A stretch of DNA of 64,000 nt from Polyangiales bacterium. Lineage in GTDB: Bacteria; Myxococcota_A; Polyangia; Polyangiales; Ga0077539. Positions 51,632 to 58,787 of the stretch are shown piece by piece. The stretch covers positions 224,001-288,000 of the forward strand of contig JBGARZ010000006.1 of assembly GCA_044229975.1 (NCBI GenBank). Direction: 5' to 3'. Positions within the stretch are counted from its first letter, which is position 1. Each line of letters starts with the position of its first letter. Both the position numbers and the translations under genes were made by a program. Under the pieces are notes generated by a model. The model saw only the letters and a list, made by a program, of their open reading frames with translations, did no database searches and had not been told where the DNA came from.

Positions 51632-53299
51632 TCAGGGTGGTGACGTTGATGAGGGTATCGAATGCCAGCGAGCGCCTCGCGTAGTTCCACGCGGTTCGGC
51701 CTTACCTTCGCGCCGGAGTTCGGCGAGAAGTCCTCGGAGTTGCCCGCGGGAGAGGGCAGGAAGGACGCCTTGCAGGTCTGACAGCGGGCTGCCGCTGTGC
51801 GTGTTGTCTGCGATGTGTCGCAACAGGAGCTGTTTGTTGGTCTCGTGGTCGAGCCCCATGCGGCGGGTGTAGTCGCCCGGCTTCCCGAGGAGCTCGTAGA
51901 ACTGCCGCGCAAGCACGATCTTCTGACCGCGACCTCGGCCGATCGTCTCAACGGCACCTCGATCACGTAGGCCGCCGATACGTTCGCGGTACTTCAGTGG
52001 CACTGGCTCTTCTCGATGGATCAGGTCGAGCACCAGAAGGTCGTCGAGATGAAACCCGCCCTCCTCGTGTTTCAGCTTTTGCATGAGGGCCAGGAAGCGT
52101 TCGTCTCGCACCGCCCCGTTCAGCGTGACCGACACCTGCCATGCGTCCGTTCCGTTGAACTCCGGTGGCTGCTTGGCCTCCTCCAACGACGTGCGCACCA
52201 CACGATCGATCCCCTGTCCCGAACGCTCCACGAACCCACAGCGTTGGAAGGTCTCCGCGATGCGTCGGTTGCGAGGGACATGTCGCTCGATGATGTTCTC
52301 GGGTGTCACGCCGTTTGGTAGTCCGCCAGGGCTGACCACGTTGAGGCGTCGCGGGTACTGGCGGACAAAGACCGAGGCGCCCAGCCCGTAGTCGCGGTGT
52401 GCGACCGCGTTGAGCAGCACCTCACGCACGGCGATCTCGTTGAAGGTCGCGATGCTGCCGACGAAGAGGCCGTCGCGGAAGCTCTGCGCATCGTTGCGCG
52501 CGTTGATCAACTCCCACAGGCGGTCGTCGATCAGGAAGAAGCCCTCTCGGTGATCGTGGCGCACCTGCGCTTCGATGGAGACGTCGTCCTTGCGGTACTC
52601 GAAGATGATCTCGGCCTGCGCGAGGTACCTGCCCAGCGCCACCCGCGTGCCCATCAAGGCGAGCGCCGCGTAGGTGATGCCACCATCGAGCGACAGCTCC
52701 GCGTCCGCCAGAAGGCGCGCGTGGTCGAACGATCGCAGCGCCTCGTTGCCCGATTTCCGCGCCCAGAGGTCGCGGAAGCGCTCGATGGCTTCCGGCGCGA
52801 GATCACTCAATGTTGCGCCTCGGCAAATCTGCGCCGAGAAGTCCGGACCGTGCGCCTCCGCGAAGATCTGCCCGAGCTTCTCGGGCGTCATCGCCACGAG
52901 GCTCTCGCCCGAGCGCATCAGGTACTGGCCCTGGTGGGCCCAAGGCGTCCCGAGCGGGCGAGACGGCACGCGAAACACCACGACCCGTCCGTCGGGGTGT
53001 TGCATCTCCTCCGCGTCGACACGGATGTGCAGCGTATCGAGGATCTGCTTCTGCTTGCCGACGAGATCGAGGAACGCGTGACTCCCCACGACCTGACGCG
53101 GCTTCTTGTCCGTCACTCCGAGAACCAGCACCCCGCCGCCTTCGTTGGCGAGGGCGACGCAGTAGCGCAGGAGGTTGTCGTGGTCGTACGAGCGCTCAGC
53201 CTTCTTGAACTCGACGTGCTCGTCCTCCCGTCCGTCCATCCAGCGCTGCAACTCCTGCAACGACGTCAGGCCCTCGGTGCTGTTCCACACGCTGCTCAT
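51632..53299 (-). CDS. AlbA_2 (Schlafen-like) + HATPase_c_4 (RecG C-terminal-like) + winged-helix protein
   Basis: EDEHVEFK, VALANEGGGVLVLGVTD, REVLLNAVAHRDY, SPGGLP, PRNRRIA, VERSGQGID. Confidence 0.9.
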   Translation of the reverse strand: MSSVWNSTEGLTSLQELQRWMDGREDEHVEFKKAERSYDHDNLLRYCVALANEGGGVLVLGVTDKKPRQVVGSHAFLDLVGKQKQILDTLHIRVDAEEMQHPDGRVVVFRVPSRPLGTPWAHQGQYLMRSGESLVAMTPEKLGQIFAEAHGPDFSAQICRGATLSDLAPEAIERFRDLWARKSGNEALRSFDHARLLADAELSLDGGITYAALALMGTRVALGRYLAQAEIIFEYRKDDVSIEAQVRHDHREGFFLIDDRLWELINARNDAQSFRDGLFVGSIATFNEIAVREVLLNAVAHRDYGLGASVFVRQYPRRLNVVSPGGLPNGVTPENIIERHVPRNRRIAETFQRCGFVERSGQGIDRVVRTSLEEAKQPPEFNGTDAWQVSVTLNGAVRDERFLALMQKLKHEEGGFHLDDLLVLDLIHREEPVPLKYRERIGGLRDRGAVETIGRGRGQKIVLARQFYELLGKPGDYTRRMGLDHETNKQLLLRHIADNTHSGSPLSDLQGVLPALSRGQLRGLLAELRREGKAEPRGTTRGARWHSIPSSTSPP

Positions 53300-53535
53300 C
53301 GCGACACCCCTCCCGCCTCGTGTCCGGTCGCAGGCCCGCTGTACCGCTCCTCACGCCACCGCGCCAACATCGCGCGGAGCACCACCTCGAAGACCTTCCC
53401 GTGTCCTCCTCGCTCCAAGTGCAACAGCTCGTGCGCGATCACCTCGGCGCGAAACTCTTCGGGCTGTTCCAGCAGATCTCGCGCGAAGGTGACTCGCCCC
53501 GCGCTCGATGCGCTGCCCCACTTGGGGCGCATCGA
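53296..53535 (-). pseudogene. 3' fragment of an M48/YgjP (DUF45) metallopeptidase
   Basis: MRPKWGSASSAG, VIAHELLHL...HG; N-terminus missing; stop overlaps the AlbA_2 start. Confidence 0.75.
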
Positions 53536-53650
53536 TTGGGCCGCGGATCTTGCTGGCCGCCGACCAGAGCCACCCACCGAGCTCGCTGTAGCGCTCGACG
53601 CCGCGTGAGACCTTGGCCTTCGGTGTCTTCCGCGTCTTCCCCTGCGCCAT
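53525..53650 (-). pseudogene. hsdM: 5' fragment of a type I R-M methyltransferase subunit
   Basis: ELGGWLWSAASKIRGPIDAP matches the HsdM N-terminal motif, then breaks off. Confidence 0.7.
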
Positions 53651-53913
53651 CGGCTGTACTCCCGCAAGCGGTTCTACTCCGCTCGAGTGCTCAGGAGGCT
53701 TGCCAGACGGCAAGAGACAGGGTCAAGCACGAACAAGTGAGCGTTGGCTCATCGAGTCTCGACGCCAGTGAGGTAGGTGATCAGTACGATGGGTCGGCGC
53801 CTGGTGCGCGAGGTGAAGGACGCGCGCTGGGAGTCGGTCGCGGGCGCGTCATCGGGGATGTGGGAGGAGCAACCCGACGCGGTGGCCGAGTCGCTCACGC
53901 GGTGGATGTCGAC

Positions 53914-54258
53914 TCAGTGACGCCAGTGGCCGCGCCGGCGGCCGGGGTGGCGCGCGACGTACACGCCGTTGGGGGTCTGCACCACGACGGGACCACGACG
54001 ACCGCGATGCCAGCGCGCGGGCCGGGCGATATAGACGGGCCGCGCGGGCTGCGCGACGACCACGGGCTGCGCGGGCTGCACATAGACAGGCGGCGGCTGC
54101 TGAACCACCACGACCGGGGGGCGGGCGGGCGCGACGATCACCGGCGCTGGCGTTCCCACGCGAATGCCCGCGCGAATCTGCACCTGCGCACCAGCCAGGG
54201 ACGGAAAGGCCATCGAGGCGACGAGCGAGCCGACAGCGAGAAGAGATCGAAGGTTCAT
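53914..54258 (-). CDS. Small exported Pro/Val-rich protein (PXPV-like)
   Basis: Signal peptide, PVVVVQQPPPVYVQP, basic His/Trp tail. Confidence 0.75.
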   Translation of the reverse strand: MNLRSLLAVGSLVASMAFPSLAGAQVQIRAGIRVGTPAPVIVAPARPPVVVVQQPPPVYVQPAQPVVVAQPARPVYIARPARWHRGRRGPVVVQTPNGVYVARHPGRRRGHWRH

Positions 54259-54419
54259 GGGTTCCTCACAGTGCAGCGCTGCAAGCGACTGCGAGGGAGC
54301 GGTTGAGCACGCGACGTGCCGCTCCGTTGGGGCGCTGAGAGGCCCGCGAGCGGGAAGATCTGCGGCGATCTGCCACAAGAGGGTGAGCGCGCTGTGCGCT
54401 CGTGGCACTGTCGACGACC

Positions 54420-54803
54420 ATGACGAAGCTCGTCGACCGCGCCGACACCGACGCCTCCACGCTCGCTGCGATCGCCGCCGTGGTGGACAAGCAGGCATCG
54501 CTCGCCCACGTGGTGCAGTGGGGACTCACCGCGACGCCCGAGCGGATGATCGTCGACGTGGTGGTGCAGGACGAGTTCACCCACGACGTGGTGCTGCGCT
54601 GGTCGGACGACCGTTACCTCGTCTACGACGCCACCTGACTGGGCGCAGTGACGGCGGTCGCCGTCTGGAATCACCCACCGACCTCGCGCGAGCTCCTCGA
54701 CGCGCGACTCGCAGACGGCTGGGAACCAACACCGTCGCTGTTGAAGGAAGGCCCGCAGGTGCTGGGCTTCGCGGCCTGCGCGGTGGGTGCGCTGAAGCGC
54801 TGA
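54420..54803 (+). CDS. Putative small selenoprotein, 127 aa, Sec at codon 73 (TGA 54636-54638)
   Basis: ...VQDEFTHDVVLRWSDDRYLVYDAT-TGA-LGAVTAVAVWNHPPTS...GFAAC...; frame open for 54 more codons; SECIS-like hairpin follows the TGA. Confidence 0.72.
54639..54677 (+). promoter_or_regulatory. Bacterial SECIS-like element
   Basis: 11-nt spacer after the TGA, then stem GACGGC/GCCGTC (54650-54665) with a GGTC loop. Confidence 0.7.
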
Positions 54804-54808
54804 GACGC

Positions 54809-56569
54809 CTACGCCGCCAGCGGACCGAAGTGCTGCACCAGCTCCGCCCGCAGGCTGGTCAGCCGCGCGTGCCTCGCCGCGAAGCCCCCGCGCAGCGCCT
54901 TCGCCTCGCCCTCGCGCCCCGCCGCCGTCAGCACCCGCTCCATGCGCGCCAGCATCGTGCACGCGTCGCGGTACGACGCCCTCCCCCGCTGCGCCACGTG
55001 CGCCTCCGCCTGCCGCAGGTACACCCGCGCCGCACCCTCCGGGTCACTCTCCTCCAGCGCCTTCGCCACCCGAACCCGCTCCGCCGCGAAGCCCGCCGGT
55101 CGCGCCCGCTCGTCCTCCGCCACCCGCCGCGCCGCCGGCAGATCACCCTCATCCAACAGCCACGCCAGCAACACGCCGGGCGCCTTCGCGTCGAGCACCG
55201 CCTCGGCCCTCTCCCTCACGTCGTCCCAACGACCCTGCGCCTGGGCCTTCTCGCGCAGCGCATCCAATGACGCCCGCGTGGGCTCCGCCGCCAGCACCGC
55301 CTCGGCCAGGCCCAGCGCCATCTCGGCGTCGACCGTCCGCGCCTCGCGTTCGCGCAGCCACGTCACCAGACGCTCGCGGCTCATGGTCCCCGACCGCGCG
55401 GCGCGCGCCTTCACCGCCTCGACGTAGCCCTCTGCCAACCCAAGCTCGTCGAAGCGCCTGGCCAGCACCAGCACCTCGCCATCGGCCACCTCGCCCAGCG
55501 CCGTCCACGCCTCTTCGATGCGGCCCAACGCCAGCAGCCGTCGACAGCGCGCCGCGGGCCGATGGTGCGCCCGCGCCTGCTCCATCCACGCCTCGTCGTC
55601 GTCGACGAGTCCCTCCTCCAGCTCCACCAGCACCGCGCCCCACGCAAACCGCGCCCACTCGTCGCCGCGCGCCATCACCCCGCGAACCTTCCGCGCCAGC
55701 GCCCGCCGCTCGTCGGCCGTCGCCACCTCCAGCGCCGCCGTCACCGCCACGCGTCCCAGCGCGTCGACCACGCCCGCGCAGCCGTGCTCCACGTCGAAGC
55801 CGTACAGCGCCACCAGCCAGCGCAACCCCCGCGCGCGCGCCTCTCGCTCCCCTGTCTTCACGCTCGCCGCGACCGCCTCGACGCACCGCCGCGCCACCGC
55901 CATCACGGGCCCCGTGTCACCGCCCACCCGGCGCCGCCGACCCACCATGCCCACGGCCAGTCGCTCGACTGCGCGCAGATCTCCCGCCGCCATCGCCGCC
56001 ACTCGCAGCGCTTCCAGCTCGGTCGCCACCGCGCCGAGATCGGAGCCCGACCATACACCGCGCAGTAAAGCCGACCCCGGCCCGTGGCCCTCGGTCGCCG
56101 GTCGCGCGAAGGCGTCGGGCAGCGCCTCTTCCACCAGCATCTCCAGCTCTGGGCGCTTCAGGAGCAGCAGCCCCAGCAGCGCCCGCAGCGCCTCGGCGTC
56201 GACCCCCGCGAGCGCCTCGTCCGCCGTCGGAACCTCCGCAAACGCCTCCGGCTCCTTCGCGTACGTGAGCAGCACCGCCGCCACGTGCTTGCAGTCCCCC
56301 GCGTCGCCCATCGGACAGTCGCACAGCGCGTCGACCACCCCGTCGGGGCCGAGCGTCACCCGCACCCGCCACGCCTCCTGCCCGCTGCCCTCGCAGCGCG
56401 CCCGCAGCACCGCGCCCCGCCGCCTTCCGTCGAACACGGCGCCCCACGCGACGTACCTCCGCCCGCGCTCCAACGCGCGACCGCCCACCCGCGCGAACAC
56501 CGACGCCTCGGTCACCACCTCGGCGCCCACCACATCGTTGGCGGGCCGCTGAAACACCATCTCTCCCAT
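54809..56569 (-). CDS. SWIM zinc-finger protein
   Basis: CDCP.....CKHVAAVLL, then a helical-repeat region. Confidence 0.88.
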   Translation of the reverse strand: MGEMVFQRPANDVVGAEVVTEASVFARVGGRALERGRRYVAWGAVFDGRRRGAVLRARCEGSGQEAWRVRVTLGPDGVVDALCDCPMGDAGDCKHVAAVLLTYAKEPEAFAEVPTADEALAGVDAEALRALLGLLLLKRPELEMLVEEALPDAFARPATEGHGPGSALLRGVWSGSDLGAVATELEALRVAAMAAGDLRAVERLAVGMVGRRRRVGGDTGPVMAVARRCVEAVAASVKTGEREARARGLRWLVALYGFDVEHGCAGVVDALGRVAVTAALEVATADERRALARKVRGVMARGDEWARFAWGAVLVELEEGLVDDDEAWMEQARAHHRPAARCRRLLALGRIEEAWTALGEVADGEVLVLARRFDELGLAEGYVEAVKARAARSGTMSRERLVTWLREREARTVDAEMALGLAEAVLAAEPTRASLDALREKAQAQGRWDDVRERAEAVLDAKAPGVLLAWLLDEGDLPAARRVAEDERARPAGFAAERVRVAKALEESDPEGAARVYLRQAEAHVAQRGRASYRDACTMLARMERVLTAAGREGEAKALRGGFAARHARLTSLRAELVQHFGPLAA

Positions 56570-56656
56570 CGCGTGCATGACGTCAGCGTAGGCGCTCACG
56601 CCCGCCTCGCAACGCGGTAGGTGACATAGCCTGTCCACTGCCGTAGAGTCGCGCGC

Positions 56657-57277
56657 ATGGCGGACGAAGAGCCGAAGCCGGCGGGCGACGAGTACACGGC
56701 GCAGTACATGGAGGGCGGTCGCGCGCGCATCGTGACGAAGCAGCGCATGCCGGGTTGGTTCTTCGCGATCATGGGCGTGTCGTCGCTCGCGATCGTCGGG
56801 AGCGGCCTCGCGACGGGTGCGCTGGTGAGCATGGTGGGGGTCATCCCGCTGGTGCTGGTGACGCTGCTGCTGTCGCACCTGCGGGTGGTGGTGACCGACG
56901 ACGCGCTGCACGTGCAGTACGGGCTGTGGGGCCCGAAGGTGGCCGTGGAGGACATCACCCGCTGCGAGGTGCAGCGCTACGACCCGATGCGCTTCGGCGG
57001 CTGGGGCCTGAAGCGCTCCATCGACGGAACCATGGCGTACAGCGTTCCGGGCGGAGAGGGCGAGTGCATCGCGCTGGAGATCACCGAAGGGGCGAAGACC
57101 CGCAAGGTGGTGATCACGACGCCCAACGCCGCGAGCGTGGCGCTCGCCATCGAAGAGGCCCGCGCCCGCAAGCTGGGATCGAGGGTGCGCGTCGATACGA
57201 GCGCCACGAGCGATGTCGGTGAGGTGGATGAAGCAGCGGTCGAAGCGACGACGGAAGAGCGACAGCGGCGGGGATAG
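56657..57277 (+). CDS. Two-TM membrane protein with a bacterial PH-like domain
   Basis: Two TM segments, then FGGWGLK motif. Confidence 0.75.
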   Translation: MADEEPKPAGDEYTAQYMEGGRARIVTKQRMPGWFFAIMGVSSLAIVGSGLATGALVSMVGVIPLVLVTLLLSHLRVVVTDDALHVQYGLWGPKVAVEDITRCEVQRYDPMRFGGWGLKRSIDGTMAYSVPGGEGECIALEITEGAKTRKVVITTPNAASVALAIEEARARKLGSRVRVDTSATSDVGEVDEAAVEATTEERQRRG

Positions 57278-57284
57278 CGCCCCC

Positions 57285-58787
57285 TCACATCGTCAGCAGT
57301 ACGTCCCGCCAGCAGGCCCGATCGGCCTCCTTGAAGAGCACCACGCGCAGCGTTCGGACGTGCACCGGTTGCAGCCACGCGAAGGTGCGAAACGCCTCCA
57401 GCATCAGCTTCGCGCCCTGCGCCATCGGAACCTCCCCGACCCCGGTGCCCAGCGCCGGAAACGCCACCGTCGTCGCGCGCCGCGCCTCGGCCTCCAGCAG
57501 CACCCGCAATACACACCGCTGTAAGCAGATGGCCCCGTCGAGCGCCGCCACCGCGTGCGCCACGTGGCTCGCCTGCAACCGCCCCGCGCCCGTCCACACG
57601 ACGTCGCCCATCGCCACGGGCAGCGTGCGCTGCGCCCGCGCCTCGACGGCGATCTCCGCGCCGCCCGCGCGCTCCAGCGAGAGGGCCACCCCGCGGTCCA
57701 TCTTGAACTGCGTGTTGGCGGCGTTGACGATGACGTCCGCGCGCTGCTCGGACAGGTCGCCCACCGCCAGCTCGACGCCCACCGACCCGATGGTCGCCGC
57801 GTCGTGGCCCGTCGGAACGATGCGCGCCCCGGGCTCGGCCACCACGCCGAGGCTGCGCACCACCTCGTCGGCCGTGGAGTAGCGGTCCTCGGGACGCTTC
57901 CGCAGCATGCGCCCCACCACCGCGAAGAGGTACGCCTCGCGCGGGTCGCGCGGCGGCGGTGGGAGGTACGGTTCGGACACGTGCGCCACCCCGAGCTGCA
58001 ACGCGCTCTCCCCGTGAAACGGCGGCGCGTTGGTCGACAGCAGGTGCGCCGTCGCGCCCAGCGCGTAGAGGTCGGTGCGGCGGTCGATGACCCCCTGGTT
58101 CCATTGTTCGGGGGCCATGAACTGGGGTGTTCCGACGATGGGTTCGTGCGCGGGGTCGACGCCGAAGGTCTCCACCGCGATGCCGAAATCCCCCACCGAC
58201 GCGGAGCCTCCGCCGCCCAGGAAGAGGTTCGCCGGTTTGACGTCGCGGTGGATGACCCCGGCCTGGTGGATGGCCCGCAGGCCGAGCGCGGCGTCGAGCA
58301 CCAGCCGGCACACGAGGTCGACCGGCAGCCGTCGCTTCATCGCGCGCTGGGCCCGCAGCAGCTCTTCGAGGTCGATGCCGTCGACGTAGCGCTGCACTAC
58401 GAAGGGGACCTCGTCCTCCACGCCCGCGTCGAGCACGCTCACCACGTGCGGTGACGAGACCCGCGCCGCGAGGTGCGCCTCACGGAAGATCTGCGACGGC
58501 GCCGCGCTCTTGAAGGTCTTGATGACCAGCGGAACCCGCAGCACCCGGTGGCTGGCGAGGTACGCCGCGCCCATGCCGCCCTCGCCGAGAATCCCGTGGA
58601 CCTTCAGCCCATGGAAGTCGCGCTCGGGCTGCGGCCCTTTGCCCGTAGGTGTGGTGATGGCCGTCGCTTCGATGGAGAGCGACGGCGCGTCGGGCGCCGG
58701 CCCAAGGAACTCGGTGGCCATCTGCCCCATCGCGGGTGATGGCACCGGAGGTTCGTTGCTGGAGTTGGAGTCGGGAGGATCGATCAT
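57285..58787 (-). CDS. Ser/Thr protein kinase fused to a C-terminal macro domain
   Basis: LGEGGMG, HRDVKPAN, DFG, FMAPEQ; macro motifs GDL, DVIVNAAN, VAFPALGTGVG. Confidence 0.92.
   Translation of the reverse strand: MIDPPDSNSSNEPPVPSPAMGQMATEFLGPAPDAPSLSIEATAITTPTGKGPQPERDFHGLKVHGILGEGGMGAAYLASHRVLRVPLVIKTFKSAAPSQIFREAHLAARVSSPHVVSVLDAGVEDEVPFVVQRYVDGIDLEELLRAQRAMKRRLPVDLVCRLVLDAALGLRAIHQAGVIHRDVKPANLFLGGGGSASVGDFGIAVETFGVDPAHEPIVGTPQFMAPEQWNQGVIDRRTDLYALGATAHLLSTNAPPFHGESALQLGVAHVSEPYLPPPPRDPREAYLFAVVGRMLRKRPEDRYSTADEVVRSLGVVAEPGARIVPTGHDAATIGSVGVELAVGDLSEQRADVIVNAANTQFKMDRGVALSLERAGGAEIAVEARAQRTLPVAMGDVVWTGAGRLQASHVAHAVAALDGAICLQRCVLRVLLEAEARRATTVAFPALGTGVGEVPMAQGAKLMLEAFRTFAWLQPVHVRTLRVVLFKEADRACWRDVLLTM

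Follow-up and report, generated by a model that had tools for sequence, protein, structure and literature searches.

Layout of the reading frame

The locus at 54420..54803 of the window (the whole 64,000-nucleotide stretch of DNA analysed here, from a Polyangiales bacterium whose genome assembly is 10.0 Mb long and 93% complete) raises the question of whether an in-frame TGA ends a short hypothetical gene or is read as selenocysteine (Sec) within a longer one. Based on our analysis, the TGA at 54636-54638 very probably encodes Sec in a 127-aa protein, with a probability of about 0.92 that applies to the recoding and not to the function of the product. We favor recoding because the UGA is conserved and has Cys counterparts, the frame downstream of it is conserved, the hairpin that follows covaries, and selA, selB, selD and tRNA-Sec are present.

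Read directly, ATG 54420 opens 72 codons whose last residues are YLVYDAT, followed by TGA 54636-54638 and by 54 more open codons that are closed by a second TGA at 54801-54803; the convergent SWIM-domain gene (Pfam SWIM, E 2.8e-7) ends at 54809, 5 nt from this stop codon. Such a layout is the one described in the sequence-only reading that proposed a selenoprotein here, and the frame also agrees with its 127-aa product, with TGA at position 73 and residue 120 as the sole, distal Cys. No CxxU or UxxC motif is found, as that reading also stated, the context being Y-D-A-T-U-L-G-A with the nearest Cys 47 residues off. The start given by the ORF finder is GTG 54402; it is ATG 54420, however, that matches the homologs as the predicted start, as these have a median of 72 residues before the TGA. 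Another GTG, at 54648, lies in frame downstream of TGA 54636-54638. The features of the locus are listed below.

54420..54803, + strand: complete gene for 127 aa, residue 73 being the predicted Sec (direct reading; homologs; structure model)
54420..54635, + strand: 5' half, 72 codons, annotated by gene callers as a hypothetical protein
54567..54587, + strand: conserved Q50-D-E-F-T-H-D56 motif, beta1-beta2 turn (D51 and E52 invariant in 89 loci; model)
54636..54638, + strand: in-frame TGA for predicted Sec73, within the T-U-L-G turn that joins beta3 to beta4 (codon survey; Cys homologs)
54639..54800, + strand: 3' half, 54 codons, with beta4, helix 89-98, GWxPTPS loop and GxAAC helix (dN/dS; invariant residues)
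54650..54665, + strand: SECIS-like hairpin GACGGC-GGUC-GCCGUC (folding, covariation, bSECIS criteria)
54777..54779, + strand: Cys120, which may act as resolving Cys or as second ligand (82/88 TGA loci have a Cys in this segment)
54801..54803, + strand: true stop codon, TGA (homolog ends mixed)

Homologs and the residue at the TGA position

Our first protein search returned 23 matches, namely the truncated product of the gene itself, 17 proteins ending exactly before the TGA column, and five full-length proteins with Cys (four) or Trp (one) at that column. A profile search at E <= 0.001 reached 787 clusters (50% identity), 150 of them being the matches listed. Among the proteins fetched, 38 are full-length and conserve both sides of the site, as the sequence-only reading had hoped to see; Cys is the commonest residue at the site in these database homologs (17), followed by Trp (8; P0003, P0031, P0032, P0042, P0049 and P0176-P0178), Ser (6), Arg (3), and Pro, Gly, Val and a gap (one each), so that 21 of the 38, known from protein records alone, carry no Cys there. 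In addition to these, 117 N-halves and 40 C-halves are held in the databases as separate proteins, in line with the prediction that gene callers would split or truncate the gene, and all but two of the N-halves (115/117) end within one residue or less of the match end, just before the site.

At the DNA level, the codon at the site was TGA in 101 of 102 homologous loci and TGC in the remaining one, while TAA and TAG, which the sequence-only reading had named as evidence against Sec, were found in none. These 102 loci are those left after removing duplicates, seven weak matches without TGA that we regard as noise (L115-L117, L119-L122), one broken copy (L118), and one locus that our pattern did not parse (L112); the best 80 of 188 genome loci were kept, and 89 loci remain at <= 90% identity. 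An unpublished carrier (L067, in genome G360) is included in the counts of 88, 102 and 72, each of which it raises by one, with no effect on the conclusions. Separate surveys gave the same picture, with a single in-frame TGA in every one of the 15 matches obtained from a DNA search of 41 relatives, and TGA in all 16 strong matches from a 301-genome sample. The true ends of the homologs are TGA in 50, TAG in 22 and TAA in 15, with one cut off, and the fixed internal TGA is therefore not a matter of stop-codon bias. TGC was seen in the DNA of three Cys genes (L076, L130 and L131).

Carriers include Myxococcus xanthus AM003, Corallococcus, Pyxidicoccus, Archangium, Haliangium and Pyrinomonadaceae, as well as Vicinamibacteria, Gemmatimonadota, Gemmataceae and Chloroflexia, and the sequences found here indicate that the family is widespread in myxobacteria and acidobacteria. 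The gene is single-copy wherever copy number was tested. No copy was found in eight of eight genomes of the same genus, nor in phage, plasmid and viral collections, and there was no longer fused form among 7,997 scored candidates, which is weak evidence. In a quick tree the Cys forms nest within TGA lineages several times (eight changes are needed, two of them forced by starred branches), which suggests that Sec is the ancestral state of the family. One well-supported subclade of seven loci (L107-L111, L113 and L114) has M-D-E-[YF]-[TS]-[IL]-[DE] and U-N-A motifs and keeps the hairpin, and five of its seven members lack the C-terminal Cys. A copy filed under Comamonas sp. KCTC 72670 (L037) nests among Myxococcus, and the record is possibly mislabelled.

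Coding constraint downstream of the TGA

Over codons +13 to +47, dN/dS was 0.135 in Myxococcaceae (78 pairs) and 0.146 in Pyrinomonadaceae (55 unsaturated pairs of 120), against upstream values in the same two clades of 0.31 and 0.11. As judged from this ratio of about 0.14, purifying selection acts on the downstream half, and the conservation of the frame beyond the TGA on which the sequence-only reading depended is thus borne out. Eight residues, on both sides of the site, are invariant in 89 loci, namely D51, E52, T72, V80, P87, L93, W101 and G116. A start codon is found at +4 in 45/88 loci; in 35/88, no ATG, GTG or TTG occurs in frame at codons +1 to +6, and a separate start corresponding to GTG 54648, which had been put forward as a way in which the proposal could fail, is therefore not conserved.

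The hairpin downstream of the TGA

The 6-bp stem (GACGGC/GCCGTC) with a GGUC loop reported exactly 11 nt after the TGA was confirmed at 54650-54665; its loop of 4 nt, with G first, begins 17 nt after the UGA, GU falls at nt 22-23, and its energy ranges from -9.6 to -10.8 kcal/mol. In E. coli fdhF, the SECIS has an 11-nt spacer and a GGUC loop. The further extension of the stem that had been envisaged (GTGA/TCAC and TGGG/CCCA) is not supported by folding, as neither the 45-nt nor the 65-nt minimum-energy fold contains it together with the 6-bp stem. The hairpin was no more stable than shuffled sequences in the four segments folded (z -1.07, -0.46, +1.15 and -0.50), and Rfam gave no match at E <= 5 across 53500-55500. 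According to PMC13188914, the bSECIS model comprises a loop of 3-9 nt, a stem of 4-16 bp, G within the first two loop positions, a spacing of 16-37 nt, and an MFE <= -7.5; with a loop of 4, a stem of 6, a spacing of 17 and -9.6, the hairpin studied here falls within these limits. Across the genome, in six frames, 22 of 186,822 TGA triplets carry such a hairpin at the same register, with 17-45 at neighbouring registers. The pairing of TGA and hairpin at this locus exceeds chance, and both codon and hairpin recur across homologs.

Hairpins that fit the model at <= -7.5 kcal/mol come after 54/88 TGAs, compared to 8/87 true stops and 14/88 internal control sites, and GU occupies nt 22-23 in all 88 TGA loci. 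The closing pair 21/24 is compatible in 88/88 (GC 69, AU 17, CG 1 and GU 1), silent positions are paired in 72/72 loci with Ala+6/Val+7 and in 46/46 with Thr+5/Ala+8, and Thr-to-Met changes accompany Val-to-Ile changes so that the stem is preserved. Val+7 is encoded by GTG in 1/88, compared to 504/912 other Val codons (G21 group). Over 86 distinct rows, covariation of the 6-bp stem was 0.223, compared to 0.118 in shuffled alignments (0/500 as high), with 79.3% paired cells against 71.8 when shuffled; all slid registers scored below the actual one, and five of the six stem pairs vary on both sides. The two measures based on numbers of pairs or of pair types were not significant (81/500 and 98/500), the covariation counts are of sequences and not of independent events, and only 50/88 loci exceed the mean of synonymous-codon shuffles. 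In 27 loci, mostly of Myxococcaceae, Ser+8 breaks pair 20/25 and the stem fits poorly. On these sequences, the hairpin covaries at silent positions, more weakly in Myxococcaceae, and the covariation that the sequence-only reading had asked for is present with this reservation. In the 27 Ser+8 loci, which are of the type of the M. xanthus locus (L023), GGUC is kept at nt 21-24, the upper stem is mismatched, and the outer stem is often longer; it is possible that such a variant represents a lineage-specific SECIS. Of three Cys genes with available DNA, the hairpin is broken in two and kept in one (L130). As positive controls we used six Prx, TlpA and FDH genes with TGA from carriers, four of which show clear RGU loops with GU at nt 21-24 and two GUA at 21-23 with less clear folds; five SelD and SelW-like TGA genes had mixed hairpin spacings.

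Selenocysteine machinery and other selenoproteins in the carriers

The genome from which the window derives has selA, selB and selD over cut-off as well as tRNA-Sec, its SelD being the Cys form. selB was found in 66 of the 72 TGA carriers tested and selA in five of the other six, four of these five with tRNA-Sec as well; the last one (G334) has a UxxK SelD. Sec machinery is thus found where the proposal needs it, with selA or selB in 71/72 carriers. In the 301-genome sample, strong matches came from 16/185 selB-positive and 0/116 selB-negative genomes (Fisher p 3.7e-4, with kin that are not independent). selB is likewise present in the one genome with TGC.

Five of six same-genus genomes tested have selB and no homolog of the 54420..54803 gene, and other Sec clients therefore probably exist in this genus. 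In the source genome itself, we found no Sec form among molybdopterin oxidoreductases, AhpC-TSA, CMD, Rdx and SelD; a deiodinase search matched nothing anywhere and carries no information on this point. Our scans of the genome were crude, two of them having filtered out even the 54420..54803 gene. A CMD candidate with an apparent TGA in this genome turned out to be an ordinary AhpD stop. Known-type genes with in-frame TGA were seen elsewhere in the carriers (L127, L141, L128, L124-L126, L129 and L137-L140 overall). In M. xanthus AM003 these are a TlpA-like gene with WAPGUHAC (L127, G337:C99) and a SelW-like gene with CTAU (L141, G337:C111); one Pyrinomonadaceae genome has three Prx-like genes, Corallococcus an FDH, and UxxK SelD with in-frame TGA occurs in three genomes (G011, G334 and G339).

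Alternatives to recoding

A leaky stop, where Trp or some other near-cognate residue is inserted at the UGA to give a short and a long product with no involvement of selenium, would account for Trp in 8/38 full-length homologs and for Ser or Arg in nine, codons for all of which are one base from TGA. UGA followed by C is a leaky stop context, and C does follow the UGA in most loci. Nevertheless, we consider this explanation very unlikely, given that Cys is commonest at the site (17/38), that the gene is strictly tied to genomes with selA or selB, and that a covarying GU hairpin sits at SECIS spacing; the Trp residues, moreover, may reflect TGG or code-4 gene calls. It is highly improbable, too, that two coupled small genes, one of 72 aa and one of about 50 aa starting at GTG 54648, make the two parts of a complex with the TGA as a normal stop between them. 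The separate N- and C-halves in the databases and the start at +4 in about half of the loci are what such an arrangement would produce; the loci devoid of any nearby start, on the other hand, speak against it, as do the TGA at the site in 88/88 loci in spite of mixed true ends, the 38 natural fused forms, the conservation of the L-G residues ahead of the GTG, and a structural model in which both halves build one sheet. Finally, absence from all eight same-genus genomes and the one broken copy (L118) might have pointed to a gene in decay that has inherited a nonsense mutation, an explanation that is hardly credible once the same TGA is found in records of five phyla (Myxococcota, Acidobacteriota, Gemmatimonadota, Planctomycetota and Chloroflexota), and that is refuted by the dN/dS of about 0.14 downstream of the TGA.

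Predicted structure and family searches

AlphaFold2, run on 116 sequences, predicts one α/β domain (pLDDT 96.2, pTM 0.89) with strand beta3-6, helices 12-22 and 28-37, a four-stranded meander (44-51, 54-62, 65-72 and 76-83), helix 89-98, and a C-terminal helix 119-126; a natural Cys homolog modelled from 35 table-11 sequences has the same elements (pLDDT 91.1). In the model, residue 73 falls in the turn that links strand 65-72 to strand 76-83, and from the geometry of the meander we infer that Sec73 would share a sheet edge with the D51-E52-F53-T54-H55 turn. Mean-field couplings (Neff 98) are weak for H55-73 and F53-73 and too shallow to place Cys120. This Cys is kept in 82/88 TGA loci; the six that lack it include five from the U-N-A clade, and it is also missing from 9/17 Cys homologs.

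When the 116 members were searched against Pfam and NCBIfam 20.0 (June 2026) at E <= 0.05, no family match was found other than scattered ones to at most three members per family (best E 0.0056), in agreement with the sequence-only reading, which could not match the protein to a known selenoprotein family. PHROGs (one match at E 0.044) and PADLOC gave no family match for the gene, the best PDB sequence match had E 0.91, Foldseek gave nothing at E <= 0.001 against PDB and BFVD, and ESM Atlas, queried with the Cys homolog P0007, gave no usable match. The best VIA Z scores, 6.2 for the Sec-protein model and 5.5 for the Cys model, show neither a new nor a different fold. Table 1 of PMC13188914 catalogues 119 prokaryotic selenoprotein families; none of the motifs in it fits, with our model scan covering the families defined by Pfam, TIGR or NF models, and the families of PMC12013261 were compared as entered in this table. 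"Myxococc" does not occur in the main texts of PMC12013277, PMC13326102 and PMC13745706, and our literature search, subscription papers aside, retrieved no description of this TGA-split family. Taken at the level of sequence, it is very likely that we are dealing with a new selenoprotein family of a known kind.

Relation to known systems

Judged by its sequence, the gene passes all testable features of bacterial SECIS-dependent selenoprotein genes. It shares with the classical system of SelA, SelB, SelD, tRNA-Sec and a bSECIS within the coding region, of which E. coli fdhF is the prototype, an in-frame UGA and a GU-loop hairpin; it differs in that the 127-aa protein is unrelated to FDH, that no lower stem is conserved, and that the stem is mismatched in Myxococcaceae. 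Comparable loops are seen in selenoprotein genes of the carriers, with GGUCU in the Corallococcus FDH and AGUU in the Prx and TlpA genes. Like thioredoxin-fold and other redox selenoproteins (Prx, TlpA-like, SelW-like, AhpD-like), the protein is small, has a single Sec and Cys homologs, and occurs in the same genomes. In place of UxxC, CxxU or TxxU, however, it has T-[TAS]-U-L-G and a distal GxAAC, the modelled order of strands and helices differs from that of the thioredoxin fold, and no thioredoxin is among the VIA matches listed. A further parallel is with GOS_B (NF041374), DF (NF049942), DG (NF049953), Sao and Tso, which are likewise hypothetical families devoid of a motif and were found as UGA truncations aligned to Cys; no member of our family, however, matches their NCBIfam models at E <= 0.05, and in contrast to Sao and Tso there is no conserved operon.

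With regard to the fold, the predicted arrangement of helices on a beta-meander may resemble that of SmpA/OmlA and BLIP-like proteins (OsmE 4dm5, VIA Z 6.2, with 81 residues aligned at an rmsd of 2.7 A; for the Cys model, Z 5.5, rmsd 3.2 over 81 residues) and that of RelE/HigB-like proteins (Z 4.0-4.8; RelE 3bpq, Z 4.8, rmsd 3.0 over 72 residues). These matches have 6-14% identity and scores typical of common arrangements, and they barely cover residues 106-127. In contrast to SmpA/OmlA lipoproteins, there is no N-terminal Cys and, by eye, no lipobox signal, residues 3-6 being a sheet strand; unlike RelE/HigB toxins, no adjacent antitoxin is conserved in the 89 loci, as far as crude ORFs of at least 70 aa can tell, given that shorter partners could escape.

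Our results would add to the known selenoproteins a widespread family that belongs to neither the thioredoxin nor the CxxU/UxxC class, for which hundreds of database fragments (the 787 clusters at 50% identity) are mis-annotated as two hypothetical proteins. Cys homologs usually far outnumber Sec forms, according to PMC13188914. In the genome loci studied here, the Sec to Cys ratio is instead 101:1; this inversion of the norm is relevant to why Sec is retained and may explain why screens based on Cys/TGA pairs missed the family. We see roughly an even chance that this gene is the founding member of a family in which Sec is ancestral, with a stand-alone gene present as a single copy in myxobacteria and acidobacteria alike, an unsolved fold and a new Sec chemistry based on an acidic/His pocket and a distal Cys, and that it is possibly among very few Sec clients in this genome. 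As Myxococcus xanthus carries a copy and is genetically tractable, recoding, the variant Myxococcaceae SECIS and function are all directly testable there.

Possible function

According to the recoding that we propose, a single gene would be translated through its UGA, read as Sec by virtue of the hairpin 11 nt downstream; by analogy with established Sec biology, SelB-GTP-Sec-tRNA would bind the GU loop and insert Sec73, and when selenium is lacking translation would stop to leave a 72-aa fragment without the fourth strand of the sheet. The selenolate, flanked by invariant acidic, His and Thr residues, may then attack a small substrate that is oxidised or electrophilic, such as a peroxide, a sulfoxide or a disulfide, after which Cys120 could resolve the intermediate to a Se-S bond and cellular thiol reductants could recycle the enzyme. 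Such an assignment, in which the protein is a selenol redox enzyme and Cys120 its resolving residue, is a tentative one, to which we give a little less than even odds. It was made because most characterised selenoproteins are redox enzymes (as stated in PMC13188914) and because one distal Cys is conserved; the lack of a CxxU or UxxC motif, of a conserved neighbour and of a structural relative counts against it.

Alternatively, and with the recoding itself left untouched, since only the step concerning function is at issue, Sec73 might be a metal or metalloid ligand together with D51, E52, H55, D56, D70 and possibly C120, in a metal-binding protein, chaperone or sensor. The acidic and His residues that the loci and the model place on the sheet edge of Sec73 are invariant or nearly so, which would suit a binding site, as would the weak H55-73 and F53-73 couplings and the fact that one clade does without C120; according to PMC13188914, moreover, metals take part in about 70% of the ligand interactions predicted for known selenoprotein families. 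We nonetheless consider a ligand role, the main rival reading, less likely than the redox one, with the rest of the probability going to other kinds of chemistry, as no metal-transport or resistance genes are conserved nearby (the largest neighbour cluster comprises 6/89 loci), and the extra Cys kept in 82/88 loci suits a resolving role equally well. For a locus closely related to that of M. xanthus (L023), RNA from one stranded run showed a sense depth of 41-48 and an antisense depth of 22-29, over a two-strand background of about 20-30, and covered both halves evenly, which weakly suggests low expression of the M. xanthus-type locus. Contigs assembled from RNA (X14, X21 and X24) are no evidence of transcription.

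Genomic neighbourhood

No neighbour is conserved beyond close kin in the 89 loci, the largest cluster being 6/89 with crude ORF calls of at least 70 aa. The convergent gene at 54809-56911 (- strand), which is not a conserved neighbour, encodes a 700-aa SWIM zinc-finger protein with a weak match to PADLOC PDC-S62 (E 5.8e-10). On the other side, 51632-53299 (- strand) and 53296-53713 (- strand) encode a Schlafen/AlbA_2 and RecG-C-terminal protein with weak PADLOC Argonaute-associated matches, and the short ORFs beside the Schlafen/AlbA_2 gene contain an HELLH motif and a 'LGGWLWSAASKIRG' stretch, which we take to resemble the start of the type I restriction-modification protein HsdM. This region, about 700 nt upstream of the 54420..54803 gene, possibly represents defence-island remnants. 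Further along, at 57285-58787 (- strand), lies a gene for a Ser/Thr kinase fused to a Macro domain.
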